A stretch of DNA of 64,000 bases from an uncultured Solirubrobacterales bacterium (GTDB lineage Bacteria; Actinomycetota; Thermoleophilia; Solirubrobacterales; 70-9), in NCBI GenBank assembly GCA_963812905.1, contig CAWEWY010000003.1:1527470-1591469 (forward strand). The letters run 5' to 3'. This document shows, in pieces, positions 1 through 28,535 of this stretch. Below the pieces are notes generated by a model. It was not told the DNA's origin and ran no database searches. It saw only the letters and a list, made by a program, of their open reading frames with translations. Every line of letters starts with the position of its first letter. Within the stretch, counting starts at the first letter, position 1. A program made the position numbers and the translations under genes.

Positions 1-357
1 TTGCGCGAGCTGCTCGAGCACCTGGCCGAGCACCCCGACGAGGCGCGCTTCGCGATCGTCGAGGTCCTCGCGGCCGGCCCGAAGGCGCTGGCCCGTCGCG
101 ACGCGGCGCTGCGCCAGTTCACGGGGTTTCTCGATGCCGGCCGCGCCGAGACCTCGGTCGAGCTGCCCGGGATCACCTCGCTCTCGCTGGCCGGCGGGAT
201 AAACGAGCTGCTCTACACCGAGATCCTCCACGGCGCCGCCTCGCAGCTGCCCAGCCGGCTGCCGGACCTGATGTTCTGGATCACGCTGCCCTTCCTCGGC
301 CCCGAGGGTGCCGCGCAGGAGCGCGAGCGGACGCGGCTTTCGATGCTCGAGGGCTAG
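1..357 (+). CDS. C-terminal part of a transcriptional regulator (TetR-like ligand-binding domain); 5' end lies outside the window
   Basis: ORF runs from the window edge to a stop at 355-357; helical, Leu/Ala-rich C-terminus resembles a TetR C-domain; a terminator hairpin follows directly. Confidence 0.35.
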   Translation: MRELLEHLAEHPDEARFAIVEVLAAGPKALARRDAALRQFTGFLDAGRAETSVELPGITSLSLAGGINELLYTEILHGAASQLPSRLPDLMFWITLPFLGPEGAAQERERTRLSMLEG

Positions 358-358
358 A

Positions 359-392
359 GCGGCGCTTGTTAAGCCGCTCTTTTTTGTGAATG
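359..392 (+). terminator. Rho-independent terminator
   Basis: Stem agcggcgc-ttgttaa-gccgct followed by a cttttttgtg T-tract, read directly from the sequence. Confidence 0.7.
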
Positions 393-501
393 CCGGGGTT
401 TATCTAATTTGCAGGGCTGGTAATTTGGCCCTGGAGGGATAGACCAAGGCTTTCAATGGCCGGGGCTTTGACGCCAGGCCGCAAAGGAGAGAGATACACA
501 C

Positions 502-1289
502 ATGCGCAAGCGTCTTGATCATGACATTGGCCCTGGGGACGGCACTCGCGGTCGTCGCTGCCGGACTCGCGGCGGCGGCGGGGAACCACAAGCCGGTCGT
601 CATCCAGGAAGGAAACCTGAAGATCACCGTCGACGGCGGCTTCAGCCCGACGGCGCTGCCGAAGGCGAAGCTGTCGCCGATCGGCCTCAACGTCAGCGGC
701 AAGATCGAGACCATCGACGGCACCCATCCGCCGGCGCTGAGGGAATTCGTCGTCGAAACGGACAAGAACGGCGCGATCAACGCAAAGGGCCTGCCGACCT
801 GCACCACAAGCAAACTCGTGGCAAGGGAAACCAAGGCCGCTGAAAAAGCGTGCCCGACGTCGATCGTCGGCGAAGGCAAGACGGATGTCGAGATCGCCTT
901 TCCCGAACAGACGCCGATCATCGTCCACAGCAAGCTGATCGCCTTCAACGGCGGCGTCAAGGGCGGCGTGACGACACTCCTCATCCACGCCTTCCTCAAA
1001 AACCCCGGTATCGGCCGCGGTCGTCACGACCGTCAAGGTCTCGAAAATCCACAAAGGCCGCTTCGGCACGAAATCCGTTGCCTCGATTCCGGTGATCGCC
1101 GGCGGCAACGGCTCGCCGGTGTCCTTCGAACTCAACGTCAACCGCAAGTTCACCTACAAGGGCAAGCAGCAGAGCTACCTGCTCGCCAAGTGCCCCGACG
1201 GCCACCTCAACGCGAGGGGGACCGCCGTCTTCAGCGACGGCAAGCACCTCTCTGGCGAAGTCGTCCGGCCCTGCACCCCAAAGGGCTGA
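502..1289 (+). pseudogene. Secreted hypothetical protein, broken by two frame changes (near 515 and ~1005)
   Basis: The GGAGAG RBS at 486-491 pairs with the ATG at 502 (MRKRL) rather than the TTG at 515; the signal peptide MTLALGTALAVVAAGLAAAAG is in the next frame; after ~1005 the protein continues in the third frame (…VSKIHKGRFGTKSVASIPVIAGGNGSPVSFELNVNRKF…TPKG*) to a stop at 1287-1289. Confidence 0.5.
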
Positions 1290-1320
1290 GCGCAGGCTTT
1301 ACTCAGGACGAATAGGGGAA

Positions 1321-1350
1321 GAAAGGGCGGCCAGGTGGCCGCCCTTTCTC
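1321..1350. terminator. Bidirectional terminator hairpin between convergent genes
   Basis: Perfect inverted repeat gaaagggcggcc-aggt-ggccgccctttc. Confidence 0.5.
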
Positions 1351-1925
1351 TATCCCCGCAGTTGCGGTTCGCCACTGGCCCTGGCCGGCGGGATCAGGCC
1401 CTCGGCCTCCTGGCGCCGCTCGCCGCGGCGCAGCATGCGCTGGGTCAGGATGGCGATGCTGAGGATCGCCGTGGCCCCGAGGCTGAGCTGGACGCTGAGC
1501 AGGCCCTGCGCTGGTCCAGTAGACGTCGCGCAGGTCGAGCAGCAGCGCCGCCTCGTCGAAGGTCAGCCCCATGCCGACCCCGGTGGTCACCGCGAGCCGC
1601 TCTTCCAGCGCCTCGTCGTCGGTCAGCAGGGCCGTCGTCGCGGAGGCGAACCCGATCAGGATGCCGGGCACGAAGTGGTGGATGTGGCGACCGCCGACGC
1701 TGACGTTGCGGAACGGCCCCCATTGGTCGCGGATGCCCCAGGTCGAGATCCGCACCAGTGCGAAGGAGCCGAGGAAGCCGGCGAGCAGGTTGAAGAGGAT
1801 GGTTTCGCTGCGCGGCGCCGCGGTGTAGCCGCTGACCGCGACCCCGACCGTGTCGAGCGCGGCGGCTGGGGCGGCTTCGACCAGGCCGTCCGGCCCCTCC
1901 TCGTGCGCCCGGCGCCGCAGCATGC
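1350..1925 (-). CDS. Hypothetical membrane protein (C-terminal frame change near 1490)
   Basis: Conserved-looking core …ETILFNLLAGFLGSFALVRISTWGIRDQWGPFRNVSVGGRHIHHFVPGILIGF…; after …DVYWTSAG the plausible continuation LLSVQLSLGATAILSIAILTQRMLRRGERRQEAEGLIP…* is in the adjacent frame and ends at a TAG at 1350-1352; start codon uncertain. Confidence 0.4.
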
Positions 1926-2102
1926 GCCCGAACTGGCCGGCCAGGACCGCCCCGGCGCCACCGAGCGCCACCGCTGGCGAGCGCCGCGGTGGCCCGCTCC
2001 GAACGCGCCCAGTGGAACCGGGTCCTCGCCGCGGCACGGCGTCTGAGTGCGGGTGGGCAGGCGGAGCGGAGCTCACGCCGCGCAGCCTAACCGCCTACAG
2101 GG

Positions 2103-2555
2103 TCAGCGTTCCTCGGTGATGATCGTCTTCACCGTGGCGACGGCGCCGTCGGCGAGCTCGATCTCGACCATGTGGGTGCCGATCTCGCGGATCGGCTGCT
2201 CGAGGCGGACCTTGCGGCGGTCGATGCGCAGGTCGCGGGCGTCGCGGATCGCCTCGACGATCTCCTTGGCGCCGACCGAGCCGAAGAGCTTGCCGTCCTC
2301 GCCCGCCCGCTGATGGATCGTCAGCACGGTCTTGGAGAGCAGCGAGGCCGCCTGCTCTTCGCGCTCGGCGCGCGCCTTCTCGGCCTTCTCGGCCGCGGCC
2401 CGCCGGCGCTGCGCCTGCTCGAGCGCACCGGGAGTCGCCGGCGCGGCCAGTTTGCGCGGGATCAGGTAGTTGCGCAGGTAGCCGGGCGAGACGTCGACCG
2501 GGTCGCCGCGCTGGCCGAGCTCGTCGACGTCCTCGAGCAGGATGGCCTGCGTCAT
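2103..2555 (-). CDS. rplI: 50S ribosomal protein L9
   Basis: [37 protein letters not shown]… is the canonical L9 N-terminus; the ATG overlaps the rpsR stop. Confidence 0.93.
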   Translation of the reverse strand: MTQAILLEDVDELGQRGDPVDVSPGYLRNYLIPRKLAAPATPGALEQAQRRRAAAEKAEKARAEREEQAASLLSKTVLTIHQRAGEDGKLFGSVGAKEIVEAIRDARDLRIDRRKVRLEQPIREIGTHMVEIELADGAVATVKTIITEER

Positions 2556-2821
2556 CAGCGCTCTCCGACGTAAGGCAGGAGCGCGATCTCGCGGGCACGC
2601 TTCACCGCCACGGACAGCTGGCGCTGGTGCTTGCGGGAGAGGCCGGTGACGCGACGGCCGCGGGTCTTCCCCTTGTCGGAGAGGAAGCGGCGCAGGAGGT
2701 TGAGGTCCTTGTAGTCGACCGCCTCGGAGTTGATCCGCGTGTACTTGCGCGGCCGCGAGCGGTCAAGCGCACGCCGCCCTCGTCGGGGCGGCGCTGATCC
2801 TGTGTCGTTAGGCCTGGCCAT
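2555..2821 (-). CDS. rpsR: 30S ribosomal protein S18
   Basis: MARPNDTG…[56 protein letters not shown]; start is the internal Met29 of the track ORF. Confidence 0.9.
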
Positions 2822-2951
2822 GCGGGTTCGGAATCCTACACTGACGGCACCGGACGCTGCGCGAGGCGGCGTCCTCAGTCGCTCGCGCGCAGAAGAGCAC
2901 ACCACGCTCCCTGCGTCCTTGCCTCGCTTGGTCCAGCGCCGTCAGGCGGCG

Positions 2952-3435
2952 CTAGAAGGGGATGTCGTCGTCCCCGCCGCCGCCCCCAGCGGTCGCGCCG
3001 GCGAAGTCGGAGGAGTCCGCCGGAACGTCGCTGCTGGGGCTGAAGCCACCGCCCTCGCCGCTCGCCACCGCCACCAGAGCCGTCGCGGGAGCCGAGGAAC
3101 TGGACCGATTTGGCGACGATCTGGACCTTCTGCCGTTTGCCGCTGCCGTCTTTGGCCTCCCACTCGCTCCAGTCGAGCCGACCCTCGACGGCGACCGGGC
3201 GGCCCTTGGAGAGGTAGTTGGCGCAGTTCTCGCCCTGCGCGCCCCAGACGACGACGTCGAAGTAGTTGGCCTTGTCCTCCCATTCGCCGGTCTGGCCGTT
3301 CTTGCGGCTGCTGTTTACGGCAACGCGCAGCTCGCAGACCGCGGTGCCGCCGCCGGTATGGCGCAGCTCGGGATCCTTCGTCAGGTTTCCGGTGATGACC
3401 ACCACGTTGATGTTCGACGCTGCCACGGCTCTCAA
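2952..3435 (-). CDS. ssb: Single-stranded DNA-binding protein (one frame change in the Gly-rich linker)
   Basis: OB-fold N-terminus NINVVVITGNLTKDPELRHTGGGTAVCELRVAVN…; the acidic tail …DSSDFAGATAGGGGGDDDIPF* is in the adjacent frame and ends at a TAG at 2952-2954; the shift sits in a GGTGGCGGTGGC repeat. Confidence 0.85.
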
Positions 3436-3576
3436 CTCCTCCGAATCGTTGTCTGGACCCCAGTCTAAGAGCGCAGGCGGCGAAACTCTCCCCCCTCGCC
3501 CCGCAATCTCCGCACGAATCCGGGCCGATGGGCCGAAGTCGACGCCGTATGGGCGCGCTCTGCGGCCCGTCGGCGA

Positions 3577-4036
3577 CTACTCAGCGGGAGCTGCGGGCGC
3601 TTCGACGGCCTCGGGGGCCTCGGCCTCGGGGACTGCGTCCGCGTCGTCGTCCGACACGGAGACCTCGGGGCGGGCGCCTCGGCCCGCGCTCGCGCGAGCC
3701 ATGGGCCGGCGCGGCGACGGCTGGCGGCACCATCACCGGGGCGTCGGCGTCGACCTTGAAGATGCGGAAGCGCAGCACGCCGTCGGCGATCTTCAGGTTG
3801 TGGTTGAGCTCGTCCAGCAGCTCGGGCGGCGCCTCGAAGCGGAACCAGCGGTAGTCGGCCTCGTTGCGCTGCTCGATCTCGTAGGCCATCTTGCGCAGGC
3901 CCCATTTGTTCTCGTGCTTGAGCGTCCCGCCCGCCTCGATCCGCCCGCGCACGTCCTGCGCCAGCACGTCGCGCCCGGCCTCGTCGGGGCCGGGGTCCAG
4001 CATCAGGACAAGCTCGTATTCGCGTGGGGCTGCCAA
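3577..4036 (-). CDS. rpsF: 30S ribosomal protein S6 (C-terminal frame change)
   Basis: MAAPREYELVLMLDPGPDEAGRDV…WGLRKMAYEIEQRNEADYRWFRFEAPPELLDELNHNLKIADGVLRFRIFKV; the acidic tail …SVSDDDADAVPEAEAPEAVEAPAAPAE* is in another frame and ends at 3577. Confidence 0.85.
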
Positions 4037-4065
4037 AACGGCGAGGGACTATAGCGGCGTTGGGG

Positions 4066-4172
4066 CGAGTGCCGGGTGCCACTCCCCGCTCAACTTTTCC
4101 GGTGAGGCGGATATGGCCTCTCGAGATCGAAGCACCGAAAAAGTACAAGCCGCGGGGAGCGGCACCCGGCAC
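4066..4172 (+). mobile_element. MITE-like nested-palindrome element, copy A, in the rpsF operon upstream region
   Basis: Terminal inverted repeats gggcgagtgccgggtgccactcccc / ggggagcggcacccggcactcgc; internal ctcaacttttccggtgaggcgg…cgaagcaccgaaaaagtacaagccgcgggg. Confidence 0.7.
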
Positions 4173-4178
4173 TCGCTC

Positions 4179-4577
4179 TTAATGCGGCGCAAACTCCGAC
4201 GATCCATCGTCGGTTGGCAGCGACGGCTCAGGCACAGCTTCCGGAGGCGGAGGCGCCGATTCGACGGCTTCTGGAGCTTCAAGCGGGGGAGGCGGCACCG
4301 GCGGCGGCGTGGGCACGGGGCGCTTGTGCGCGTGCCGACGAGGCACATGCCGAACCCGCTTCCGATGTGGTCGGGCCACTCGCACAGGCTTGGGGGCGGG
4401 CGGAGGTGCAGCAACCTCGACCGGCGCAGCTTCGACCCGCGGCAGCCCGACATCGGCCGGTACCGGCGGCGGAGCGGGAGGCCTCAGCAAGCTCGGCACA
4501 ATCTGAAGCGCCAGCAGCACTCCAGCCGCCACAAGGATCACGCGCCAAGCTCTCGACCAACGAATCCGAAGACTCAC
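4179..4577 (-). CDS. Pro-rich membrane-anchored hypothetical protein
   Basis: N-terminal signal anchor WRVILVAAGVLLALQIV followed by a PAPPPVP-rich region; flanked by inverted MITE copies A and B; may be a compositional artefact. Confidence 0.3.
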   Translation of the reverse strand: MSLRIRWSRAWRVILVAAGVLLALQIVPSLLRPPAPPPVPADVGLPRVEAAPVEVAAPPPAPKPVRVARPHRKRVRHVPRRHAHKRPVPTPPPVPPPPLEAPEAVESAPPPPEAVPEPSLPTDDGSSEFAPH

Positions 4578-4623
4578 GCAAAGCTAAGTCCCCAGACCGC
4601 GGAGTTCTCCCCCCGCGCTCGAA

Positions 4624-4733
4624 AGAAGGCATCGGGTGGCCCTCCCCGCGGCTTGTACTTTTTCGGTGCTTCGATCTCGAGAGGCCAACCCCGCCCCACC
4701 GAAAAAGTTGAGCGGGGAGGGCCACCCGATGCC
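4624..4733 (-). mobile_element. MITE-like element copy B, inverted relative to copy A
   Basis: Its reverse complement aligns almost base for base with copy A: …ctccccgctcaactttttcggtg…ggcctctcgagatcgaagcaccgaaaaagtacaagccgcggggag…; terminal inverted repeats aaggcatcgggtggccctcccc / ggggagggccacccgatgcctt. Confidence 0.7.
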
Positions 4734-4734
4734 T

Positions 4735-6201
4735 TCAGGCAGCCACGTCCCGAAGCTCCGCGATATCCCTCAACTGCTCATCAACCCAGTCCCCAGGATT
4801 CCGAGCAAAGACCAGCTCCTTCAGGCGCTGCGCCCGCAGCCGCCGCTCCTCCGGGTCCATCGTCAGCGCCCGGTGGATCGCGTCGGCCTGATCCTGGATG
4901 TCGAAGGGGTTGACCGAGAGCGCGCAGTCGGCCAGCTCCTCATGGGAGCCGGTGTTCTCCGAGAGCATCAGGACGCCGTCGCGGGTATTGACTGCCGGCG
5001 CCTCCTTGGCGACCAGGTTCATCCCGTCGAAGAGCGAGTTGACCATCAGCAGGTCGAAGTGCTTGTAGCGGGCGACCGCCTCGGGGAAGTTCTCGTAGAC
5101 CTTCAGGTCGATCGGCATCCAGTCGGTGGTGCCGTGGCGGTGGTTGACCACCGCGACCAGCGCGTTGATCCGCTCCATGTACTCGGCGTACTCCTCCACG
5201 TCCTGGCGCGAGGGCTGCAGATGGGCGATGAAGGTGACCTGTTCGCGGAACTCGGGATGCTGGGTGAGGAAGACGTCGAAGGCGGTGAATCCGCGCAGCA
5301 CGTTCTTGGAGAGGTCGGCGCGGTCGACGCGGATGATCAGGTGCTTGCGGCGCCGCTCCAGCACCTCGCGCTCAGCGGCGGCAACCTCCGGCGATTCGGC
5401 CGCCCGGCGCAGCCGTTCGGCGTCGATCGAGAGCGGGTAGGCGCGCGCCCGCGTCTCGCCGCCGGCGTGGCGGACCAGCCCGAGCTCGTAGTCGACGTCG
5501 GCCTCGAGCAGTTCGTCGCAGCAGCGCAGGAAGTTGATGCAGTAGTGGCCGGTGTGGAAGCCGATGATGTCGTTGGAGAGCATGCCGCGGAAGAGCGCCT
5601 CGCGGATCCGTCCCGGCAGGATGCGCCAGCTGTCGGGCTGGGACCAGGGGATGTGGACGAAGTGGTGGAGGAAGGCGTCGGGGCGCTCGGCGCGGATCAT
5701 TCCCGGGGCCGTGTAGAGGTGGTAGTCGTGCAGCATCACCAGCGGCCGCTCGCGGCCCTCGATCTGGCCCAGCACGGCGGTGGCGATGTCGCGGTTGACC
5801 GCCTGGTAGCCGAGGTCCCAGGCGTCGAGCTCCTCCTGGCGGATGTCGGGGGCGTTGGAGAGGTCCCAGAGGTAGTGCTGGATGAACCAGAGGATCGGGT
5901 TGGCGATCACGTTGTAGAAGCGGTCGTAGGCTTCGGCGTCGCTGCCGACCAGCAGCACGCGGTAGTCGATGCCGTCGATCGAGAGATCGACCGGGCCGCC
6001 GCGCTCTTCGGAGACGGCGACGTCCTCGTCGGTCATCGCCGAGGCGATCCAGAGCGCGTCGCGGTGGGAGACGAGGCCGGAGAGGGCAGTTACGAGCCCG
6101 CCGCCACCGCGTTGCACGGTGCGCTCGCCCTGCTCGTCGCGCTCGAACTGCGCCGGCCCTCGATTCGAGACGATGATCAGTGGGTCCGCGGTGTCCGCCA
6201 C
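4735..6201 (-). CDS. otsA: Alpha,alpha-trehalose-phosphate synthase (GT20)
   Basis: Uninterrupted 488-aa ORF: IIVSNRGP…GGLVTAL…DALWIASAMTDED…ANPILWFIQHY…FFLHIPWP-type motifs. Confidence 0.9.
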   Translation of the reverse strand: MADTADPLIIVSNRGPAQFERDEQGERTVQRGGGGLVTALSGLVSHRDALWIASAMTDEDVAVSEERGGPVDLSIDGIDYRVLLVGSDAEAYDRFYNVIANPILWFIQHYLWDLSNAPDIRQEELDAWDLGYQAVNRDIATAVLGQIEGRERPLVMLHDYHLYTAPGMIRAERPDAFLHHFVHIPWSQPDSWRILPGRIREALFRGMLSNDIIGFHTGHYCINFLRCCDELLEADVDYELGLVRHAGGETRARAYPLSIDAERLRRAAESPEVAAAEREVLERRRKHLIIRVDRADLSKNVLRGFTAFDVFLTQHPEFREQVTFIAHLQPSRQDVEEYAEYMERINALVAVVNHRHGTTDWMPIDLKVYENFPEAVARYKHFDLLMVNSLFDGMNLVAKEAPAVNTRDGVLMLSENTGSHEELADCALSVNPFDIQDQADAIHRALTMDPEERRLRAQRLKELVFARNPGDWVDEQLRDIAELRDVAA

Positions 6202-6230
6202 GTGCCCAGACTACCCCGGCCGTTCCCGGC

Positions 6231-7469
6231 CTATGTGTCGAGCTCGGCCAGCAGTTCGACCCAGTCGCGCAGCAGGCGCGGCGAGAGGAACTCGCGGCGG
6301 GCGTGTTCCTTGCCGGCCCGACCGAGCTGCTTGCCGAGCTCCGGGTCGGCGAGGATCTCAAGGCAGCGCTGCGCGCACTCCTCCGGCGAGTCGACCAGGA
6401 AGCCGCTCTCGCCGTCTGTGATCTGCAGCGGGATGCCGCCGACGTTGCCGCCGATGGTCGGGCGCCCCTTCCAGAGCGCCTCGGTCACGGTCAGGCCGAA
6501 GCCCTCGCGGATCGACTTCTGCAGGCAGACGTCGGACTGCGACTGGAAGGCGTTGACCTCGATCGCGCCGACGTTGTTGAGGTTGTTGAGGATCTTGATG
6601 TCGTCGTCGCCGTCGGCGTACTCGAAGGTGTGCTGGAAGAACTCCCAGCCCTCGGGGTCGTCGGTGGCCATCGAGCCGACCAGGGCAAGCTGCACCTCCG
6701 GCACCTGCTCGTGGACGATGCGGTAGGCGTCGATCACGCCCATCGGGTCCTTCCAGGGGTCGAAGCGCGAGACCTGGGTCAGCAGCGGGCGGTCGACGTC
6801 GATCCCGAACTGGCGGCAGACGAAGGCGGCGTCGTCGGGCGAGAAGGCCATGTTCTTCGGCGAGAGCGGGTCGATCGCCGGCGGGATGATCTTCACCCCG
6901 TTGTGGCCGTCGACTCCCTTCGGCACGTAGGCGGGCATGTGCCAGACGGTCGCGTCGTATTCCTCGATCATCGGCAGCAGGCGGGCGATCGGCGCCGGGT
7001 TGGGCTCGGAGAGGTCGATGTGGCAGCGCCAGATCCAGTTACGTCCCTTCTCGTTGGCGCCGCGCCGCAGGCCGATCGGCTGGGGGTCGTGGACGATCAC
7101 CGTGTCCCACTCGCCCTGCAGGCCCTCGGCGTTGATCGCGTTGATCTCGTCGAAGATCTCCCACTGCTCGTCGCTCAGCGTCTCCTCCGCCCCCTGCAGT
7201 GAGTTGTGGAGCAGCTTGGTCGCGTTGAAGAACTCCTCCTTGCCGAAGATCACGTGCCAGTGCGCGTCGAGGCCGATGTCGCGCATCAGCGGCACGATCG
7301 TGTAGAGGATCTCTGAGACGCCGCCGCCGAAGGCAGTGGCGCTGACGTGCAGGACCCGGTGGCCCTTCATCGGCTCGGCCAGCTCGCGGATGCGTTCGAT
7401 CGTCTCCTTGCCGGCGATGTGGGTGTAGTCGGCGAGGGACTTGTGGCCGAGGGAGACTTCCTGAAGCAT
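6231..7469 (-). CDS. GT4-family glycosyltransferase, TreT-like (trehalose glycosyltransferring synthase)
   Basis: N-terminus MLQEVSLGHKSLADYTHIAGKETIERIRELAEPMKGHRVLHVSATAFGGGVSEIL is typical of TreT/GT4 enzymes; uninterrupted 412-aa ORF; adjacent to otsA. Confidence 0.65.
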   Translation of the reverse strand: MLQEVSLGHKSLADYTHIAGKETIERIRELAEPMKGHRVLHVSATAFGGGVSEILYTIVPLMRDIGLDAHWHVIFGKEEFFNATKLLHNSLQGAEETLSDEQWEIFDEINAINAEGLQGEWDTVIVHDPQPIGLRRGANEKGRNWIWRCHIDLSEPNPAPIARLLPMIEEYDATVWHMPAYVPKGVDGHNGVKIIPPAIDPLSPKNMAFSPDDAAFVCRQFGIDVDRPLLTQVSRFDPWKDPMGVIDAYRIVHEQVPEVQLALVGSMATDDPEGWEFFQHTFEYADGDDDIKILNNLNNVGAIEVNAFQSQSDVCLQKSIREGFGLTVTEALWKGRPTIGGNVGGIPLQITDGESGFLVDSPEECAQRCLEILADPELGKQLGRAGKEHARREFLSPRLLRDWVELLAELDT

Positions 7470-7506
7470 CCGGGAGTTCTACAGGCCGCGGGCGGTCGGG
7501 CGGCGC

Positions 7507-8645
7507 TCAGCCGCGCGGGCGCTTGCCCAGCGTGACTTCGACGTCGACTTCGCTTGCCGTTGCGGAGGACGTCGAGCGTGACCGTTTCGCCGGGCTTGTA
7601 GTCGGAGACGAAGTCGGCGAGGTCGTTGGGGCCGATCACCTCGCGGCCTTCGACGGCGAGGATCACGTCGCCCCCGGTGCGGTAGGCGGCGGCCTGGAAG
7701 CGCAGCTTGCCGTCGCCTTCCTCCAGGCCCGCTTCGTCGGCGGGGCTGCCGGCGACGACTTCGGAGATCAGGCCGCCGTGGTCGGTGTCGAGGCTGAGCT
7801 TGCTGCGCGAGCTGGGGATAGAGCGGCTGGGTGGAGACGCCGATGTAGGCGTATTCGGCTTCCCCGTCGCGCTCGAGCTGGGCGAGCGAGCGTTTGATGG
7901 CCGAGATCGGCACGGCGAAGCCGACCCCGTCGTTGGCGCCGGATTCGGTCTCGATCTGCTGGTTGATGCCGACCACGCGGGCGCCGGCGTCGAGCAGGGG
8001 GCCACCCGAGTTGCCGGGGTTGATCGAGGCGTCGGTCTGGATCGCCCCCTCGATCTGGAACTTGGTCAGCGATTCGACCGAGCGGTCGGTCGCCGAGACG
8101 ACGCCGACCGAGAGCGACTGCTGCTCGCCGAAGGGGCTGCCGATCGCCGCCACCGGCTGGCCGACTTCGAGCTTGCGGTCGTCGCCCAGCTTCAGCGGGT
8201 GCAGCGCGAAGCCGTCGGGCTTCACCTTCAGCAGCGCCACGTCGGCGAAGGGGTCGAAGCCGACGATTTGGGCGGCTACGACGTTGCGGTCGGAGAACTC
8301 GACGAAGACTTCCTTGGCCGGCTTGCGGGCGCCGCTCGATTCGTCGGTGACGACGTGGGCGTTGGTGACGATGCGCCCGCTGGCGTCGAGGACGAAGCCC
8401 GAGCCCTCGGCGGCGCCTCCGCCGTCGCCGAAGATCGAGCGGATCGTGACCACTCCGGGCGAGGCCTCGCGGTAGACCCGCGCTGCGTTGAAGCCAGGCG
8501 CGGCTGTCTCGACGATCACCTGCGGCGTTTGCGGCGCGCTGCCGGCGGCTGTCTGCTCGGCGGAGCCGTCGCTTCCCGAGCCGCCGCACCCGGCCAGCGC
8601 CAGCGCCAGCCGCGGCGCCGCGACCCAGCGGAGGCCGCGCTTCAC
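7507..8645 (-). CDS. htrA: HtrA/DegP-family serine protease lipoprotein with a PDZ domain (at least two frame changes)
   Basis: Lipobox LALAGCGG; trypsin fold …TNAHVV…GNSGGPLLD…; PDZ domain …GGLISEVVAGSPADEAGLEEGD… in the adjacent frame; the true C-terminus …RNGKRVDVEVTLGKRPRG* ends at a TGA at 7507-7509. Confidence 0.8.
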
Positions 8646-10630: not shown

Positions 10631-11653
10631 TCATGCGAGTTGGTCGAACCCCGCCGCCCCCAGAAGCTCCCCGCCGGGCAGCCTGATCTCGACCCCAGCG
10701 CCGGCGACGACTTCGCCGATCTTCGTCAGCTCGGCTCCTTCCTTTTCTCGTACGGTGGCCGTTGCCCGGTCGAGGTACTCGGGCGGAATGCTCGCCAGCA
10801 GCTCGTAGTCCTCGCCGCCGGTTGCCGCTAGCGCGACCGGGTTCAGTTCAGCAGCCGTTGCGGTCTCAACGACGCCGGGCGCCAGCGGTAGAGCAGCCGC
10901 CTCGATCCTTAGGCCGACGCCGCCACTCTCGGCGAGGTGACGCGCGTCGCCGCCAAGCCCGTCGCTGAGGTCGATCATCGCGGTCGCCCCGGAATCCGCC
11001 AAGGCGCGGCCGGCTGCGAGGCGGGGAGTCGGCTCAAGCTGCCGCTGCAACAGCCCTGCCCCCGCTGACTTCGCCTTTGACCCGTCTATAGCCCCACTAA
11101 AGACGAAGTCAGCATCGAGGCGGGGGTTATCGAGCAATGCCAGGCCGGCAGCGGCGCCGCCGATCTCGCCGGTGAGCACGAGCGCGTCGCCGGGGCGAGC
11201 GCCGGCGCGGCTCACGAACGAGCCCGGATCCGGCGCGTGGCCTACGACTGTGATCGCCAGGAAGAGCTCGGTGGCACGGGTCACATCGCCGCCGGCCAGG
11301 CTCGTCCCGGTCGCGGCGGCCAGGTCGGCCATGCCGTCGAGTAGCTCGAGGCAGCCGTCCTCGTCGAGGTCGTCGGGAATGCCAAGGACGACATAGGCCT
11401 CGCCGGGCTCGGCCGCCATTGCCGCCAGGTCGGAGAGTGCCGCGGCGAGCGCCTTGCGGCCGATCTGAGCGAGGCTCGCGTGCTTGCGGCGGAAGTGAAC
11501 GCCGTCGACAACGGCGTCGACCGAGGTCGCGGTGGCACCTCCAGGCACGGTTACAGCGGCATCATCTCCCGAGCCGAGTCTTACCTGGGACCCCGCGGGG
11601 GGCAATCGTTCCCGGATCCGCGCCAGCAACTCGAACTCACCCATGGGCTCCAT
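10631..11653 (-). CDS. thiL: Thiamine-monophosphate kinase
   Basis: MEPMGEFELLARIRERL…GDDAAV…AIR fold motifs; GAGGG RBS upstream of Met10. Confidence 0.8.
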   Translation of the reverse strand: MEPMGEFELLARIRERLPPAGSQVRLGSGDDAAVTVPGGATATSVDAVVDGVHFRRKHASLAQIGRKALAAALSDLAAMAAEPGEAYVVLGIPDDLDEDGCLELLDGMADLAAATGTSLAGGDVTRATELFLAITVVGHAPDPGSFVSRAGARPGDALVLTGEIGGAAAGLALLDNPRLDADFVFSGAIDGSKAKSAGAGLLQRQLEPTPRLAAGRALADSGATAMIDLSDGLGGDARHLAESGGVGLRIEAAALPLAPGVVETATAAELNPVALAATGGEDYELLASIPPEYLDRATATVREKEGAELTKIGEVVAGAGVEIRLPGGELLGAAGFDQLA

Positions 11654-11670
11654 TGTCGCCCTCAGCCGCT

Positions 11671-11714
11671 GAGTTCGCACTTAGTGGGGCTATTGGACGC
11701 TTAAGTGCGAACTC
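11671..11714. repeat. Palindromic hairpin repeat with an AT-rich loop (family H)
   Basis: gagttcgcacttag-tggggctattggacg-cttaagtgcgaactc; related hairpins occur at 37493, 39096 and 13426. Confidence 0.7.
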
Positions 11715-12835
11715 ACGCTCGTGCCATCACTAAGGTGCGCTCGGTGGGTGAGCGTCAGCCATTTCTGCATCGGGTCGGCGAGGCCGGAGCGAAGTTCGGC
11801 ACCAGGCCGCCGCGCAGCAAGCGCGTTCGCCTTGCGATCCAGCTCGGGATCGCGCTCCTCGTCTTCGGCTTCCTCGTTCTCACCGTGGTCGACCAGTGGG
11901 CCGAGATCAAGGACAAGGGCGTCCACTTCCACGTCCTCTGGCTGATCCCGGCGTTCGTCATCCTGCCGGTCTTCTACGCGCTCAACGCCCTCGGCTGGGA
12001 CCTGATCCTGCGCTTCCTCGGCTACCCGATCGGCGTGCTGCGGGCGCAGGTGGCCTGGGGGCAGCCGCTGCTGGCGCGCTACGTGCCCGGCAGCGTCCTC
12101 TACGTCCTTGGGCGGGTGCTGCTCTCCGAACGGGTCGGGGTGCCGCGGCGGCTGACCGTCGCCAGCATCGTCTACGAACAGGCGCTGCAGGCCACCTCGG
12201 CGATCGTCGTCTCCGCCTACTTCCTGATCGACCACCCCGACCTGCAGGGCGAGCCGCTGCGCTGGGGCATACTCGCCCTGATCCCCCTCGCACTGGTGCT
12301 CCTGCACCCGCGCGTCTTCGGGCCGCTCGCCAACCGCGTGTTGCGCGCTTTTGGCCGGGAGCCGCTGCCAGCGGTGATCCCGCTGCGCGGGGTGGCGACG
12401 GTGCTCGCCTTCTACACCCTCAACTGGGGCGTTGTCGCGGCCGGCCTCTACTGCGTCGCCCGCTCGGTCAGCACGATCTCGCCGAGCGACATTCTGGTCG
12501 TCGGCGCCGCGCAGGCATTCGGCTACGTCGCGGCGCTGGCCACCCTGGTCGCCCCGGCCGGCCTGGGCATCCGCGATGCCGCGTTTGCCTGGGCAGTGAA
12601 GGTCGCCGTACCCGGCAGCAGCTTCGCGGTGGCCTCGCTGATCGCGATCGTCGTCAGGGGGGTGCTGACCGTGGTCGAAGTGATCTACGTCGCGATCGTG
12701 ACGGCGATGGGGCGGCGCGAAGGGTGGTCGATCCATACCGGCGTGCTGCATGCGTCGCCTGAGGAGGAAGAGGCGAACGTTGTGGAGGAGCCCGGGAATG
12801 TGTCCCTCGGCCCAACAAGTCGCCGCGCTGATTAG
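11705..12835 (+). CDS. Lysylphosphatidylglycerol-synthase-TM/flippase-like (UPF0104) membrane protein
   Basis: Multiple transmembrane helices in a UPF0104-like pattern; the start codon is uncertain because the ORF begins inside the hairpin; the C-terminal tail runs into the 12791-12880 palindrome and is probably artefactual. Confidence 0.55.
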   Translation: MRTHARAITKVRSVGERQPFLHRVGEAGAKFGTRPPRSKRVRLAIQLGIALLVFGFLVLTVVDQWAEIKDKGVHFHVLWLIPAFVILPVFYALNALGWDLILRFLGYPIGVLRAQVAWGQPLLARYVPGSVLYVLGRVLLSERVGVPRRLTVASIVYEQALQATSAIVVSAYFLIDHPDLQGEPLRWGILALIPLALVLLHPRVFGPLANRVLRAFGREPLPAVIPLRGVATVLAFYTLNWGVVAAGLYCVARSVSTISPSDILVVGAAQAFGYVAALATLVAPAGLGIRDAAFAWAVKVAVPGSSFAVASLIAIVVRGVLTVVEVIYVAIVTAMGRREGWSIHTGVLHASPEEEEANVVEEPGNVSLGPTSRRAD

Positions 12836-12880
12836 CGCGGCGACTTTGAGTATCCGCCGGTCCGAGGGACACATTCCCGG
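12791..12880. repeat. 90-bp nested palindrome with 20-bp terminal inverted repeats
   Basis: cccgggaatgtgtccctcgg…gtcgccgcgctgattagcgcggcgac…ccgagggacacattcccggg. Confidence 0.65.
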
Positions 12881-12952
12881 GCTCCAACTCCGAAGGCGAC
12901 TCAACTCGCAGTCCGTTCGAGCGCTGCCGGCTTTCGGGCCAGCTTTGGGCTT

Positions 12953-12995
12953 CCGGTGCGCTTTATGTGGGCTATGGCCGCATAAAGCGCACCGG
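12953..12995. repeat. REP-like palindrome, family R (CCGGTGCGCTTTATG…CATAAAGCGCACCGG), copy 1
   Basis: ccggtgcgctttatgtgggctatggccgcataaagcgcaccgg; same motif at 58001-58043 and, degenerate, at 43141-43180. Confidence 0.75.
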
Positions 12996-13002
12996 AGCGC
13001 AG

Positions 13003-14124
13003 CTAGAGCGGGATTCGTGCTCCCAGTTGGTATGCAGTCAGCCCGAGCAGCAGGAGCTTTAGGGGTCTGTCGCGGGATAGGGCTGCGAGGGGGAGGGGCC
13101 AGAGGAGGTACCAGGGGAGGAGCCAGGCCGTGGCGAGGAGGAGGCCGGTGGTGGCCCAAGCAGCGGCGCGTAGCCAGTCGTTGCCGCGGTAGGCCCAGAC
13201 GAGCAGGTAGGCGACGAGGGCGGCGTAGAGGGTCAGGGCCGCTGCGCGGGCCGCGTCTGGGTCAAGGCCGGTTAGGCGAGCCGCGGTGATCGGAATGCTC
13301 ATGTAGCTGGTGTGGCCCTGGTTCTCCCCGGCGAGCGCGAAGGCGTCGAGCCAGTGCCACCCGAAGCCGAGATAAGCGCCCAGCCCCACCCCCATCACGC
13401 CCAGCCCCACCCCCACCAACAGCCTGCCGACGGGCCGAAATCCTCGGTATATCAACGGATTTCGCCCCGTCGGCGGGGGTTTCACGATTGCGAGGAGGGC
13501 GAATGGAATCGCCACGGCTGCTGAGGCCTTGATCGCGATGGCGGCCACGAGGGCCGCGCCGGCTGGGGTCTCGCGGGCGGTGAGGATGCCGGTTGCGCCG
13601 AGCATCATCAGAAGGATCGCCAGGGCGTCGTTGTGGGGGCCGCCCACCACGTGGACGAGGACGAGGGGGTTGAGGGCGACGAACGCGGCGGCGCGGAGGG
13701 GGTCGGCGCCGCGCGCCGGGGCTAGGCGGGCGATGAGGATCGCGAGCGCCAGCACCGCGGCGGCCGATATCGCCTTGAGGACGTAGACGGCGACACCCAC
13801 CGGGAGTGCGGCGAGCGGGTAGGTCGCCAGGGTGAAGAGGGGCCCGTAGGCGCTGGTCGTGTGGGGCCAGGTGACGTGGGCGAACGCCGGGTCGGCCGGG
13901 AACGCGGCCGGAGGGTGGACGTAGGGGTTGAGGCCGCGCAGGGCGCCGAGGCGGGCGTAGTCGACGTAGCTGTAGACGTCGTGGGAGAGCAGCGGGGGCA
14001 GGCAGGCGAAGGCGACGACCGCGACGACGATCGTGCCCCAGAGCAGCCACCGCGAGAAGCGGGGCGCCCAGGCCAGTACGCCCAGGTAGGCGAAGAATCC
14101 GGCCCACATGAGGGCGTAGGCCAC
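13003..14124 (-). CDS. GT87/DUF2029-like integral membrane glycosyl(mannosyl)transferase
   Basis: Polytopic 373-aa ORF with DUF2029-like topology (…YSYVDYARLG…NPY…); contains an in-frame 49-bp hairpin at 13426-13474. Confidence 0.5.
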   Translation of the reverse strand: MAYALMWAGFFAYLGVLAWAPRFSRWLLWGTIVVAVVAFACLPPLLSHDVYSYVDYARLGALRGLNPYVHPPAAFPADPAFAHVTWPHTTSAYGPLFTLATYPLAALPVGVAVYVLKAISAAAVLALAILIARLAPARGADPLRAAAFVALNPLVLVHVVGGPHNDALAILLMMLGATGILTARETPAGAALVAAIAIKASAAVAIPFALLAIVKPPPTGRNPLIYRGFRPVGRLLVGVGLGVMGVGLGAYLGFGWHWLDAFALAGENQGHTSYMSIPITAARLTGLDPDAARAAALTLYAALVAYLLVWAYRGNDWLRAAAWATTGLLLATAWLLPWYLLWPLPLAALSRDRPLKLLLLGLTAYQLGARIPL

Positions 14125-16309: not shown

Positions 16310-16726
16310 TCAGGCCTGCGTGTCCTCGGTCGAGAGGTTGTGGATGATCCCGTCGACCAGCATCTGGTTGGGGATCACGATCGCGGTGCCGTCGCCCGGG
16401 TTCACGTAGGTGTAGGAGAGGGTGATGTCGGTGACCCGGCCGCTCACCTCCTCGAAGGAGATGCGATCGCCGATCTTGATCGGCTGGGAGATCGCCAGCT
16501 GGACCCCGGCGACCATGTTCCCGATCGTGTGCTGGGCGGCGAAGCCGATGATCGCGGCCAGCACCGCGGTCGAGGCGAGGATGCCGGTGGCCAACCGCTT
16601 CAGCTCCGTGAACTGGGCCAGCGCGATCGCGAGGAGGACGAGGAAGACGACGAGGATCAGCAGCCGGCGCAGGAAGCGCAGGCGGGTCTTGGTGGACCGC
16701 GAGACCTGTGAGACTGCCGGCGTCAT
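16310..16726 (-). CDS. Small MscS-family mechanosensitive channel protein
   Basis: …LATGILASTAVLAAIIGFAAQHTIGNMVAGVQLAISQPIKIGDRISFEEVSGRVTDITLSYTYV…. Confidence 0.65.
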   Translation of the reverse strand: MTPAVSQVSRSTKTRLRFLRRLLILVVFLVLLAIALAQFTELKRLATGILASTAVLAAIIGFAAQHTIGNMVAGVQLAISQPIKIGDRISFEEVSGRVTDITLSYTYVNPGDGTAIVIPNQMLVDGIIHNLSTEDTQA

Positions 16727-16743: not shown

Positions 16744-16860
16744 GGGAGGGCGTCGGGTGCCCCTCCCGGCTCAACTTTTTCGGTGAGGCGGGGTCGGCTT
16801 GCAGTTGACGGATCGACGAAAAAGCACAAGCCGCCGGGAGGGGCACCCGACGCCCTTTCC
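16744..16860 (+). mobile_element. MITE-like element copy C, in the divergent promoter region
   Basis: Terminal inverted repeats ggggagggcgtcgggtgcccctccc / gggaggggcacccgacgccc; internal ggctcaactttttcggtgaggcgg…cgacgaaaaagcacaagccgccggg. Confidence 0.7.
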
Positions 16861-21364: not shown

Positions 21365-21438
<74 letters not shown>

Positions 21439-23067: not shown

Positions 23068-23520
23068 CTCACATCTACTGTCAAAACTGAGAGCCGTTTG
23101 CGTCGGGTGACTTTGAAAAAGTTTGCGCAGCGCCTCTCCGGCTCGCGCAATCGACACCGCTCCCGACCCGCCGCCAAACATTGCTGACGTTGCAGATCAG
23201 CAAAGTGCGGCCCAGGCATGGAACCAAGGGGTTCGTAGTGTGTCGGCCGTCGGGGCTGTGGCGTGGGGAGGGCATCTGGGACTACCTGGGGGTCTGCCTC
23301 GGGACCTCTGGCATCTGTGGGGGTAGCTGGCCTGAGTCGGTGGCTCTGGCTGCTGGCTGAATGAATCTGATCTGGACTTGCTGGCTGTCTATGGCTGGCG
23401 TTCAGCGGCTTCTCGGAGGCCGAGGCAGGGTGCGGAGCCATCCATGCGAGTAGACAACCTCGCCACCTCCCTGTGGCCTGCGCCCCGGCCCCCGAGAAGC
23501 CGCTGAACAACCTTGCCGTT

Positions 23521-27230: not shown

Positions 27231-27422
27231 GTGCGGAGCCTAGACGACGTTGACCGACCCTTGTGTGGCTCAGTCCGGAGCCGGAGGAAATTCATTGGGC
27301 AGCAGCGTGATTTCGCTGCCCAAATCAAAATGAATCCCACCTAAAACGGCGAGAAATGACGAACCTAAGCGCCACTCTCTTTCCGCTCTACAGACACGAA
27401 AACTCCAACTTCTCCAGTCGCT

Positions 27423-27463
<41 letters not shown>

Positions 27464-27502
27464 ATGCCGACATTGTCTCTCAGACGAGCCGTCCAATGAG
27501 TG

Positions 27503-27871
27503 CTAGGTCTGAAGCCGGTTGTGGGCGACTTGGTAGACGGTGGGAGCGTTCGAGTCACGCGGATGATGGCGGACGCCGAAGGCGGCGTAGACGAGTCGCA
27601 ACTTGCCGCTACGGCGCTCGATGCGGAAGACCATGCCGAACTTTCCGTCAGGGGGTGGCAGATAGACCTTGACGCAATGCGCGAGCTGGGTTCCGTCGGT
27701 GCCTTCCTTGTCGCAGGCAAGAAGGACATCTACCGGCACGCCGTTCTGTTCGTACTCGCTCCGGGTTGCGCGGGCGACCTTCTGCCCTGCATCGCTGGCT
27801 CGCCTCAAATCCTCAGCGAAGGCAGCATCGTCGAACAGGGCCGTTGTCCGACCAGACCGCTTGTCGCTCAC
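27503..27871 (-). CDS. Mini-element 1, gene B: 122-aa protein, possibly a RelE/ParE-fold toxin
   Basis: …CVKVYLPPPDGKFGMVFRIERRSGKLRLVYAAFGVRHHP… has a C-terminal beta pattern reminiscent of RelE/ParE; start overlaps the stop of gene A. Confidence 0.5.
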   Translation of the reverse strand: MSDKRSGRTTALFDDAAFAEDLRRASDAGQKVARATRSEYEQNGVPVDVLLACDKEGTDGTQLAHCVKVYLPPPDGKFGMVFRIERRSGKLRLVYAAFGVRHHPRDSNAPTVYQVAHNRLQT

Positions 27872-27874
27872 CGG

Positions 27875-28120
27875 CTACCCCTCGCCGTCGGGGGGCTGCA
27901 CTGGGCCGAACTCGGCCTCGAACTCAGCCAAGGTCGCCGGCTCGGTGCCAAGGCGCTTGCGGATCGCCTCGAACGAGGTATCCGGAACAAGTGTGAGCGA
28001 TCCGTCCGGGCGCTCCTCGGTGACGCGGTACTCGCCCACCCGGTCGTCGCTGAGCTCGACGTGAGCATGCAACTCCATGCGGTGGATGATGGCAGAAGCC
28101 GACCGTGCTGTTGAAGGCAT
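27875..28120 (-). CDS. Mini-element 1, gene A: 81-aa protein, putative antitoxin partner
   Basis: MPSTARSASAIIHRMELHAHVELSDDRVGEYRVTEERPDGSLTLVPDTSFEAIRKRLGTEPATLAEFEAEFGPV…; first gene of a two-gene operon. Confidence 0.5.
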   Translation of the reverse strand: MPSTARSASAIIHRMELHAHVELSDDRVGEYRVTEERPDGSLTLVPDTSFEAIRKRLGTEPATLAEFEAEFGPVQPPDGEG

Positions 28121-28453: not shown

Positions 28454-28497
<44 letters not shown>

Positions 28498-28535
28498 GCC
28501 GACATTGTCTCTCAGACGAGCCATCCAATGAAGCG

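Follow-up and report, generated by a model that had tools for sequence, protein, structure and literature searches.

Interspersed hairpin repeats of ~110 bp with a conserved internal core at gene 3' ends in Solirubrobacterales

The described systems that come closest to the repeat family reported here include REP sequences and REPINs, which are mobilised by RAYT transposases (Bertels & Rainey 2011, PMC3116915), and the Tuberculosis Rho-independent terminator (TRIT), of which 147 palindromic copies are centred at position -8 from the stop codon (Gardner et al. 2011, PMC3152330). Also comparable are the Rickettsia palindromic elements (RPEs), palindromes of 100-150 bp that can enter genes in frame and then be translated (PMC10969869), and bacterial MITEs such as Correia, ERIC and BOX/RUP/SPRITE (reviewed in PMC10969869). 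The present family of ~110-bp interspersed palindromic elements is undescribed so far. Rfam searches, at gathering thresholds and at E values up to 10, gave no family match and returned only the tRNA and chance miRNA-like hairpins, and no described repeat matching the family was found in the literature on Solirubrobacterales/Thermoleophilia.

The elements were first noted in a 64-kb stretch of DNA from an uncultured Solirubrobacterales bacterium, referred to here as the window, by a sequence-only reading that described a multi-copy family of MITE-like repeats. The family extends well beyond the window: at least 120 copies were recovered by an exact core pattern in 117 loci from other genomes, nearly all of them Solirubrobacterales/Thermoleophilia MAGs, and among the matches listed it is restricted to this lineage. 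Complete MAG chromosomes are among the carriers (e.g., OY969417.1, OY970392.1, OY970260.1, OY969700.1 and OY969705.1). Viral contigs (searched with the exact pattern) and plasmid and phage collections (searched with blastn) contained no copies, so that neither a phage nor a plasmid vector is indicated. Outside the window, 767 kb of DNA yielded about 8 extra copies, a low density that suggests a copy number of tens per genome, not hundreds.

Each copy is short (105-125 bp), non-coding and palindromic, as first proposed, and forms one long hairpin of four parts. The outer stem (19-27 bp) varies in sequence among copies and subfamilies with its arms remaining complementary. It is followed by an invariant asymmetric junction, in which CT(T/C)A on the 5' side lies opposite ACAAG(A/C)C on the 3' side and a C:G pair closes the junction, by an invariant 9-bp A/T-rich helix (ACTTTTTCG/CGAAAAAGT) and by a variable, fast-evolving tip of ~33 nt. 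In an alignment of 122 copies the core does not vary, and columns 40-52, which correspond to the 5' side of the junction and the 5' strand of the A/T helix, show little or no change. This invariance is partly built in, as the loci were picked by the exact core pattern; variants of the core recovered by a structure-based search, however, number only about 8. In the apical region, identity among orthologous copies ranges from only 24% to 91%. The structure derived here coincides with an independent RNAalifold prediction. The element is also asymmetric, with a covariance model of the family scoring 90-120 bits on one strand and 30-50 bits on the other.

Four copies reside in the window, where the covariance model scores them at 90-100 bits and the rest of the sequence at 29 bits or less. 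The pattern AACTTTTYCG-N25-50-CGAAAAAGYACAAG has exactly four matches in the window compared to 0.00 expected from 100 shuffles. Copy A (4065-4176, plus strand; 89.6 bits on the plus and 39.9 bits on the minus strand) is of the A-type subfamily. Its outer stem is formed by a 5' arm (GCGAGTGCCGGGTGCCACTCCCCGC, 4065-4089) that pairs with the 3' arm (4152-4176) with one mismatch. The interior includes the junction TCA and the 5' strand of the A/T helix (ACTTTTCCG, 4090-4101, with one T>C change), a variable apical domain of two small hairpins (4102-4135), and the 3' strand of the A/T helix (CGAAAAAGT) with the unpaired ACAAGCC (4136-4151). Copy B (4625-4736, minus strand; 97 bits) and copy C (16747-16856, plus strand; 89.9 bits) are likewise A-type, with B inverted relative to A. 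A repeat finder pairs A with B (96-nt arms, 91% complementary) and B with C (109-nt arms, 80%). Folding bears out the strong hairpin in each of A, B and C, at ~-80 kcal/mol (z = -8 to -11).

The copies noted from the sequence alone are all present, with coordinates correct to within a few bases. The segment at 40062-40118, which had been taken for a fragment devoid of terminal repeats, was misread and is instead the interior of a complete element, copy D (40044-40148, minus strand), which has the top score of the window (99.7 bits). Copy D belongs to the D-type, or majority, subfamily: its outer stem (GCGATCCCGGCAGGGGT/ACCCCTACCGGGATCGC) is the same as that of the commonest subfamily in other loci. 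Thus, A-type and D-type elements are both found in the window with the same core. For the terminal repeats said to be common to A, B and C, the similarity is limited to the inner ~17 nt; their outer parts differ between copies, with compensation on the opposite arm. The conserved peptides in the open reading frame track are, as suspected, spurious and mere translations of the conserved core.

The gene context of the window copies is largely as first described. Copy A is 2 nt from the stop of a Pro-rich ORF (4179-4577, minus strand) on one side and, on the other, lies 28 nt upstream of the start (4036) of rpsF (3581-4036, minus strand). Copy B adjoins the otsA stop, with the last two stem bases (4735-4736) overlapping the stop codon (4735-4737). 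Copy C occupies the spacer between a divergent MscS fragment (16310-16726, minus strand) and a CPBP/Rce1-like gene. Copy D separates the hemA stop (40163) from the hemC start (40026) and holds a 46-codon ORF, of which the GTG overlaps the hemA stop and the TGA overlaps the hemC ATG. This overlap is probably a coincidence, as it is absent from the orthologous copies in loci L031 and L036. The window also has several other long hairpins at gene ends that are unrelated to the family.

Two interpretations of copies A and B do not hold. They had been described as an inverted pair that brackets the Pro-rich ORF, and a composite transposon A-ORF-B was considered; the sister genome L043, however, retains the ORF and B with only a remnant of A, by which the arrangement is no unit and the composite is ruled out. 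Copy A had also been placed in the leader of the ribosomal protein operon. It is not such a leader and has no Rfam match, and since L043 retains only a deleted remnant at site A, copy A is dispensable for rpsF.

Most copies of the family are located directly 3' of stop codons, or between the stops of convergent genes, and rarely in frame in a gene. The stop codons gather at the outer edge of the stem. In the D-type subfamily they peak at 25-27 nt from the core, on the left in 38 and on the right in 42 of 94 copies. Measured from the core, stop ends concentrate at -24 to -31, at -11 and at +2, and the secondary peaks coincide with the TAG and TAA of the element itself. Convergent contexts (+E-) number 30 compared to 6 divergent (-E+). 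Of the copies with gene ends on one side alone, 47 have them on the left (top-strand side) and 21 on the right, a bias of ~2.2:1 (p ~0.002, normal approximation) for which local GC skew has no explanatory power. Gene context was assigned by GC-phase and stop-anchored tests, and some antisense false positives remain in these counts (e.g., opposite hemC). A replication-strand bias of the kind expected of IS608-like elements was considered and found to be weak (49 vs. 33 loci by the sign of GC skew), and it is not the cause of the gene-direction bias.

Orthologous sites reveal gain, loss and retention of the elements. Sites occupied in L020, L025 and L029/L034 are empty in L008, L099 and L104 (TGA-GCG-CTA, TTAG and TGAGCTCA), and these clean empty sites are located between convergent stop codons. 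Upstream of rpsF, where a check for an empty site in related strains had been suggested, intact copy A is missing from L043, but an 88-nt internal deletion has left a remnant at the site, not a clean empty site. A truncated copy is noted in L083. The membrane-protein gene of L070 has a 39-codon in-frame insert that its orthologues in L035 and L003 do not have, and in L070/L018 this gene includes two in-frame inserts, an inverted pair inside a single gene. In-frame copies are limited to this one gene family (L070/L018/L035/L003) among about 124 copies. Other copies persist, including window B in L043, window C in L051 and window D in L031 and L036, and many occupy the same orthologous site across 3-5 species. 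Non-homologous sites, presence/absence polymorphism and decay by internal deletion show that the family behaves as non-autonomous mobile (selfish) DNA. Persistence in 3-5 species shows that copies are inherited vertically over long periods and turn over slowly, a pattern that suits either a host-useful or a selfish element. No transposition event was seen directly, and the empty sites, in comparisons of species with 73-90% identity, might in principle have arisen by precise loss.

The arms of the stem covary. Stem cells are paired in 84% of cases compared to 64% in shuffles, and the covariation score is 0.511 compared to 0.144 in shuffles, none of 500 shuffles being as high; the signal collapses once partner columns are slid by 1-3 positions. 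The outer stem is 92% Watson-Crick with few G·U pairs, and a perfect 19-bp stem is present in 58 of 122 copies. Orthologous copies have 135 compensated and 82 single stem differences. Between window B and its L043 orthologue, five compensated and no single changes are found within 20 bp, with a sixth compensated change just outside. The A/T helix is also compensated in extra copies (TTTTTGG/CCAAAAA and TTTTTCT/AGAAAAA). Judged from these alignments, it looks as if the hairpin shape is preserved and not the sequence of the arms. Stem mismatches of the G·T (44) and A·C (73) types favour neither RNA strand, and selection on the RNA of one strand was set aside on this basis.

The best explanation of the family, held with moderate confidence, is a non-autonomous mobile hairpin repeat that is closer to REPIN/REP than to a classical MITE and is kept at gene 3' ends. 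The invariant core, common to subfamilies with unrelated arms, would be the recognition site of a trans-acting enzyme. A single-strand mechanism, of the REP/REPIN-RAYT or IS200/IS605-like type, may fit better than a DDE-transposase MITE and is preferred because of the conserved core, the hairpin shape and the lack of target-site duplications. The arms may stay complementary because the hairpin is selected for or because one arm is corrected from the other by template switching (hairpin-templated correction). Copies that are retained would place a hairpin of ~-80 kcal/mol at mRNA 3' ends and within operons, where it probably acts as a REP/TRIT-like 3'-end barrier or stabiliser and not as a canonical terminator. 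A more speculative version, given rather low probability, is that the core is the putative docking site of a dedicated protein, and that a REPIN-like system was co-opted across the order to provide gene-end hairpins flush with stop codons, the arms being held in perfect complementarity by hairpin-templated correction rather than base-by-base selection. The protein might be an HUH enzyme resembling RAYT or, alternatively, a termination factor that binds double-stranded RNA or DNA. In the 8-kb loci and the 64-kb window, no mobilising enzyme turned up. The ORFs between pairs of copies are not transposases of the RAYT type: the window has ORF132 in this position, L004 a 265-aa membrane protein and L104 an IS1380 transposase.

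The foremost alternative to the REPIN-like mobile repeat, although itself unlikely, is a dedicated lineage-specific gene-end element analogous to TRIT, in which a host factor binds the hairpin and ends transcription or processes/stabilises mRNA 3' ends, with the element spreading rarely and being kept by selection. The narrow distribution relative to stop codons, as in TRIT, is consistent with this idea, as are the enrichment of convergent and depletion of divergent contexts (30 vs. 6), an orientation that tracks gene direction (~2.2:1) and not GC skew, and orthologous copies kept over 3-5 species with compensated stems. The unrelated long hairpins at other gene ends of the window also fit, and such hairpins appear general in the host genome. 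However, no T-run typical of a canonical Rho-independent terminator is present 3' of the element in the window copies or the listed loci, so that a U-tract after the 3' arm is missing, and the matches of a terminator-like scan are only sub-hairpins inside the element that use its internal T5. Strong termination would be harmful within the hemA-hemC operon (copy D) and directly upstream of rpsF (copy A). Copies are also found in both orientations, in a divergent promoter spacer (copy C) and as an in-frame coding insert, and in a close relative site A has undergone deletion. Few of the stem pairs are G·U, and the mismatches have no bias to the transcribed strand.

The classical IS-derived MITE, in which terminal inverted repeats are bound by a DDE transposase encoded elsewhere and insertion generates a target-site duplication, is considered improbable. 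Size, palindromic shape and dispersed, polymorphic copies fit this model. A TNA or CTAG target, as in the IS5 family, would explain the stop-codon association in a genome of 70% G+C, as A/T-containing targets would concentrate at stop codons in high-G+C DNA, and D-type ends are often T-N-A | GAGCC...GGCTC | T-N-A. However, TNA is found on either side in only ~20 of 94 copies, and the middle base differs between the two sides. Target-site duplications, suggested as a check, were not found among flanking k-mers (k = 2-6, four offsets): direct repeats match the shuffled expectation at every offset (at k = 3, one identical pair vs. 2.1 expected), and three filled/empty site pairs are also free of them. 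An IS with matching ends, solo ends or a full-length partner was not found in ~1 Mb of sampled DNA. The lone IS beside copies, an IS1380-family transposase between two copies in L104, was considered as a parent, but it has unrelated inverted repeats of its own (CCTGATCCACCG...) and a CTAR-like duplication and, judged by these ends, is a neighbour of the copies and not their parent. Moreover, the arms vary between subfamilies and the interior is conserved, the reverse of the MITE layout. Thus, the label MITE-like is apt for a multi-copy, short, non-coding and polymorphic element, but not for one with no target-site duplication, no matching IS and ends that are variable, co-varying stems.

An integron attC-like site, or other site-specific recombination substrate, is highly improbable: the left core (G/A)CT(T/C)AAC agrees with RYYYAAC, the inverse-core consensus of attC, unpaired bases are present and conservation is stronger in structure than in sequence, but the partner motif is GTACAAG and not GTTRRRY, the 25-bp arms reach beyond the supposed core sites, and the copies are single, dispersed, in both orientations and amid housekeeping genes, with no cassette arrays and no adjacent integrase.

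The Solirubrobacterales, soil actinobacteria that are abundant and for the most part uncultured, have compact genomes of ~2.5 Mb, and to our knowledge nothing is known of their gene punctuation. The family provides a sequence-defined marker for this lineage and, through the many compensated changes at orthologous sites, a natural experiment on the upkeep of long perfect hairpins. After the mycobacterial TRIT, it is a second example, from a high-G+C genome that lacks canonical terminators, of a conserved palindrome tied to stop codons. The invariant core may serve as bait for a cognate enzyme or binding factor, if one exists. Once the element is recognised, spurious conserved peptides and false extensions of ORFs can be removed from annotations.

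Of the known systems, MIRUs (mycobacterial interspersed repetitive units) are repeats between operon genes that have small ORFs overlapping the stop and start of the neighbouring genes and form tandem direct repeats. The ORF of copy D, which overlaps the hemA stop and the hemC ATG, is reminiscent of this arrangement; however, the overlap is not kept in L031/L036, and MIRUs are not hairpins. The MITEs (Correia, ERIC and BOX/RUP/SPRITE) resemble the family in being small, non-coding, dispersed and structured, near gene ends and with possible effects on transcripts. By definition, however, they have conserved terminal inverted repeats, duplicate their target site and derive from a parent IS; none of these three features was found in the DNA sampled here. 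The RPEs share with the family a palindromic repeat able to insert in frame, as in the L070/L018 gene. In-frame genic insertion is the rule for RPEs but the exception here (one gene, about 124 copies), and the two have no sequence relationship.

TRIT is similarly a lineage-restricted, sequence-conserved and bidirectional palindrome of a high-G+C actinobacterium without canonical U-tract terminators, with a very narrow spread around stop codons and frequent overlap of coding sequence. A 2014 mBio study reportedly questioned the terminator activity of U-tract-less hairpins in mycobacteria. By contrast with TRIT, the sequence and host are unrelated, the element is longer and has a variable outer stem and a three-part architecture, and gain, loss and one coding insertion are clear. 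The family may be at most a functional analogue of TRIT, not a member.

REPINs are comparable in form: their hairpin units of ~100 nt consist of a pair of conserved motifs in inverted orientation and carry compensatory changes on both sides. They are extragenic, generate no target-site duplication, occur in several sequence flavours per genome and have a long co-residence with the host. REP units, however, are imperfect palindromes toward the ends of the unit with a variable middle spacer, whereas in the present family conservation is internal, in the 9-bp helix and asymmetric junction, and it is the long arms that vary. Two inverted 9-nt motifs and co-varying stems are present, but the motifs are not REP-like imperfect palindromes, and the centre is conserved with variable arms. 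The copy number is apparently in the tens and not the hundreds, and the host is an uncultured actinobacterial order.

Four copies of the ~110-bp palindromic hairpin repeat are located in the window by sequence reading and alignment of the copies: A (4065-4176, plus), B (4625-4736, inverted), C (16747-16856, plus) and D (40044-40148, inverted). The multi-copy family proposed by the sequence-only reading is thus real, and the places it gave to rpsF, a Pro-rich ORF, otsA and MscS/CPBP are borne out. All four copies share AACTTTTYCG, 33-34 nt and then CGAAAAAGYACAAG, and this core pattern has four matches in the window vs. 0.00 expected from shuffles. Folding supports the palindromic form, as A, B and C are each a single hairpin (~-80 kcal/mol, z -8 to -11). 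The 'terminal-repeat-less fragment' at 40062-40118 was a misreading: copy D possesses an outer stem of 17 bp (GCGATCCCGGCAGGGGT / ACCCCTACCGGGATCGC) and is the top scorer of the four with the family model (99.7 bits). Both subfamilies, defined by arm sequence, are present, with A, B and C of the A-type and D of the D-type.

The genes near copies A and B are rpsF (3581-4036, minus; SSB downstream), the Pro-rich ORF with its hydrophobic N-terminus (4179-4577, minus) and otsA (4735-6201, minus). The MscS fragment (16310-16726, minus) is divergent from a CPBP/Rce1-like gene, and copy D is between hemA (stop 40163) and hemC (start 40026). Copy D is spanned by a 46-codon ORF (40026-40168, minus strand) whose GTG shares bases with the hemA stop (GTGA) and whose TGA shares bases with the hemC ATG (TGATG), a layout resembling translational coupling; the orthologous copies at loci L031 and L036 from other genomes do not retain it. 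In locus L004, a copy (2573-2700) is directly upstream of rplM (ribosomal protein L13), like copy A before rpsF, and together with a second, inverted copy (3504-3631) brackets a 265-aa membrane-protein ORF. A composite unit of A, the ORF and B is rejected by comparison with locus L043, where site A is a deletion remnant but copy B is kept.

The repeat represents a lineage-wide, polarised family of hairpins, in which the core is invariant and the arms co-vary. It extends well beyond the window: an exact-pattern scan of a species-representative genome collection finds at least 120 exact-core copies in at least 117 loci. Among the matches listed, nearly all locus labels are Solirubrobacterales, Thermoleophilia or unclassified Actinomycetota MAGs, many with chromosomes of ~2.5 Mb, and one core is common to three arm types: (i) D-type (...AGAGCCNATCCCGGTAGGGGTTCCRCTTAAC...CAAGACGYTCCACCCCTACCGGGATNGGCTCT; 94 of 121 copies), (ii) A-type (GGGTGCCCCTCCCCGCTCAAC...CAAGCCGCGGGGAGGGGCACCC) and (iii) a third type (...CCCCTCTCTCAAC...CAAGCCGTTCGGGG) that is counted together with A-type. 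Searches of viral contigs, plasmids and phages find no family copy, Rfam has no matching entry and no description is found in the literature; the family itself appears undescribed. A covariance model built from 122 copies matches only A-D in the window and, on 767 kb of loci, finds ~8 copies beyond those used for retrieval. Against this density of ~1 copy per 100 kb in the loci (tens per genome), the window is densely populated, with four in 64 kb. One strand of the element scores 90-120 bits with the model and its complement 30-50, which indicates a defined polarity despite the palindromic form. One locus labelled Chloroflexota (L073), whose copy and flank are near-identical to those of a Solirubrobacterales locus (L059), probably comes from a contig binned to the wrong genome rather than from another phylum.

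In an alignment of 140 columns, pairing joins column i to 141-i for i = 8-27 and 31, column 40 to 109 and columns 44-52 to 101-93; RNAalifold, run independently, predicts the same pairs. Of all cells, 84% are paired; shuffling the columns lowers this to 64%, and displacing the 3' partner by 1-3 columns lowers it to 39-50%. Both sides are changed in 990 cells (314 in shuffles), and the covariation score of 0.511 (0.144 shuffled) is reached by 0 of 500 shuffles. Watson-Crick pairs fill 92% of outer-stem cells, most positions of this stem show each of the four pair types, and the 19-bp stem is without a flaw in 58 of 122 copies. The R:Y pair adjacent to the junction is G:C in 63 copies and A:U in 51, a clean switch, and compensation is also seen in the A/T helix of variant copies (TTTTTGG/CCAAAAA and TTTTTCT/AGAAAAA). 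The A/T helix (9 bp) and the asymmetric junction (3 nt vs. 7 nt) are the invariant parts. Ascertainment by exact pattern accounts for some of this invariance, although a search by structure brought in few variants. Apart from a GC..C motif (columns 59, 60 and 64), the tip shows little conservation. Mismatches of both kinds are rare (G·T 44, A·C 73) and neither strand is singled out as transcribed. It is a perfect duplex that is preserved, and this fits RNA no better than it fits a hairpin/cruciform at the DNA level or a copying mechanism.

Many copies occupy one orthologous site in three to five species (e.g. L007/L028/L072/L110/L114, L068/L085/L113 and L015/L017/L098), and the orthologous sites of window copies C and D are also filled, C in L051 and D in L031 and L036. 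Across 32 orthologous pairs, stem positions differ at 39% of sites; the stem changes are compensated in 135 cases, single in 82 and double but unpaired in 34, with part of the latter two classes due to indel mis-register. The compensated changes indicate active maintenance of the hairpin across divergence between species, with drift in the tip.

Family copies are gained and lost at orthologous sites. In L043, which is 89-92% identical to window 1-7700, copy B has five compensated arm changes within the 20-bp counting window, a sixth just outside and none uncompensated. Upstream of rpsF, where an empty site in related strains had been raised as a check, L043 has no full copy A, but what is left (GCGGGTG-gcggtacccga-CACCCGC) is not a clean empty site; it retains the outermost 7 bp of the stem and part of the right arm and, thus, marks an 88-nt internal deletion. 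A flank-anchored comparison of all loci gives three clean filled/empty pairs: L020 filled and L008 empty (TGA-GCG-CTA), L025 filled and L099 empty (overlapping stops TTAG), and L029 and L034 filled and L104 empty (TGAGCTCA). In all three, the element is exactly between the stop codons of convergent genes. Occasional in-frame coding insertion is found in a conserved membrane-protein gene (no Pfam match) of L070, L018, L035 and L003, apart from which genic copies are rare. The ORFs of L070 (2734-4818, minus) and L018 (5710-7796, minus) contain two inverted copies; a 39-codon in-frame insert is restricted to these two and missing from the L035 and L003 orthologues, and the second genic copy, just past the N-terminal hydrophobic segment, is in all four. 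Locus L083 has a truncated copy.

The family is strongly associated with stop codons. Measured from the core of the 94 D-type copies, the stop codon of the left-hand gene ends at offsets 25-27 in 38 and, on the right side, reverse-complement stops begin at these offsets in 42; offsets 25-27 are the outer edge of the stem, and pairing falls sharply at 27. Other genes take their stop from the element itself, either its TAG (in CCGGTAGGGG) or its TAA (in CTTAAC). A crude GC-phase classification yields 33 tandem co-oriented, 30 convergent, 11 tandem anti-oriented and 6 divergent arrangements. By a stricter stop-anchored test, a gene ends on the top-strand side only in 47 cases, the other side only in 21 and both in 18 (38 unassigned), a side ratio of ~2.2:1 (p ~0.002, normal approximation). 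This bias is not derived from local GC skew (49 vs. 33 loci), as it is equal in both skew classes. Since convergent-gene spacers in these compact genomes are 0-3 nt, an insertion that survives there will automatically touch both stops, which accounts for part of the flush placement. Even so, the 3'-end enrichment and orientation bias point to selection or transcription-linked targeting.

Several distinct palindromic repeat families seem to be present in this genome. Other long nested hairpins of the window (12782-12890, 47994-48134, 23395-23513, 36953-37016 and 13416-13484) are 60-140 nt, with near-perfect outer stems of 20-30 bp (dG -39 to -101 kcal/mol, z -4 to -10), and are unrelated in sequence to the family. 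L031 and L036 have the 36953-type at the orthologous site, and further occurrences are in L100, L039, L109, L080 and L063; the 13416-type is seen again in L085. A 46-nt perfect palindrome (TTCCGGTGCGCTTTATGTGG...CCGCATAAAGCGCACCGGA) has two window copies (12946-13002 and 57992-58052, 91% identical) and is also in L066; the first is at a site where the syntenic L092 has a member of the ~110-bp family. The 5' part of tRNA-Arg(CCT) (21365-21438, minus strand) recurs as 44-nt copies at 27422, 28454 and 29489 in ~1033-bp direct repeats (84-96% identical; 27391-29531) inside a low-G+C (53-64%) island at ~24-30 kb; this may be an integrated element in which attachment-like sites are repeated. Inverted stretches at 46583-46872 and 59189-59475 (70-78% complementary) have the look of diverged coding paralogues lying on opposite strands, and an inverted repeat pair (11066-11113 / 11668-11715; 48 nt, 73% complementary) encloses ~550 bp.

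The family is, on balance, best read as a mobile hairpin repeat. The core would be the recognition site for a trans-acting enzyme, and mobilisation would be closer to REP/REPIN-RAYT or IS200/IS605-type single-strand mechanisms than to DDE-type MITE transposition. Either selection for the hairpin or template-switch correction may uphold arm complementarity, and retained copies may, by analogy to REP or TRIT, serve or at least be tolerated as gene-end hairpins. A primarily host-functional gene-end element, a reading that overlaps with the mobile repeat, is possible but rather unlikely. A pure terminator is weakened by copy D within an operon, copy A directly upstream of rpsF, copy C in a divergent promoter spacer, the occurrence of both orientations, a copy within coding sequence and the lack of a U-tract, which was looked for after the 3' arm. 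The MITE-like nature proposed by the sequence-only reading fares poorly, and a classical MITE is improbable: no target-site duplication is detected at any tested length or offset, the TNA on either side of ~20 of 94 D-type copies has a middle base that does not match between sides, and a search for solo ends or long arm-bounded elements finds none. An IS1380-family IS is present between two family copies in L104 (~4101-5750; transposase 4157-5548, PF13701, E = 2.5e-75), with inverted repeats CCTGATCCACCG... and CTAA/CTAG flanks; it is rejected as the parent, its own ends being unrelated to the family arms. That the copies are attC-like sites is very hard to credit.

Small interspersed palindromic repeats are a well-known kind of element. 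Compared to the known examples, this family is without target-site duplication, is placed flush with stop codons and has a conserved centre, with arms that are variable yet perfectly paired.
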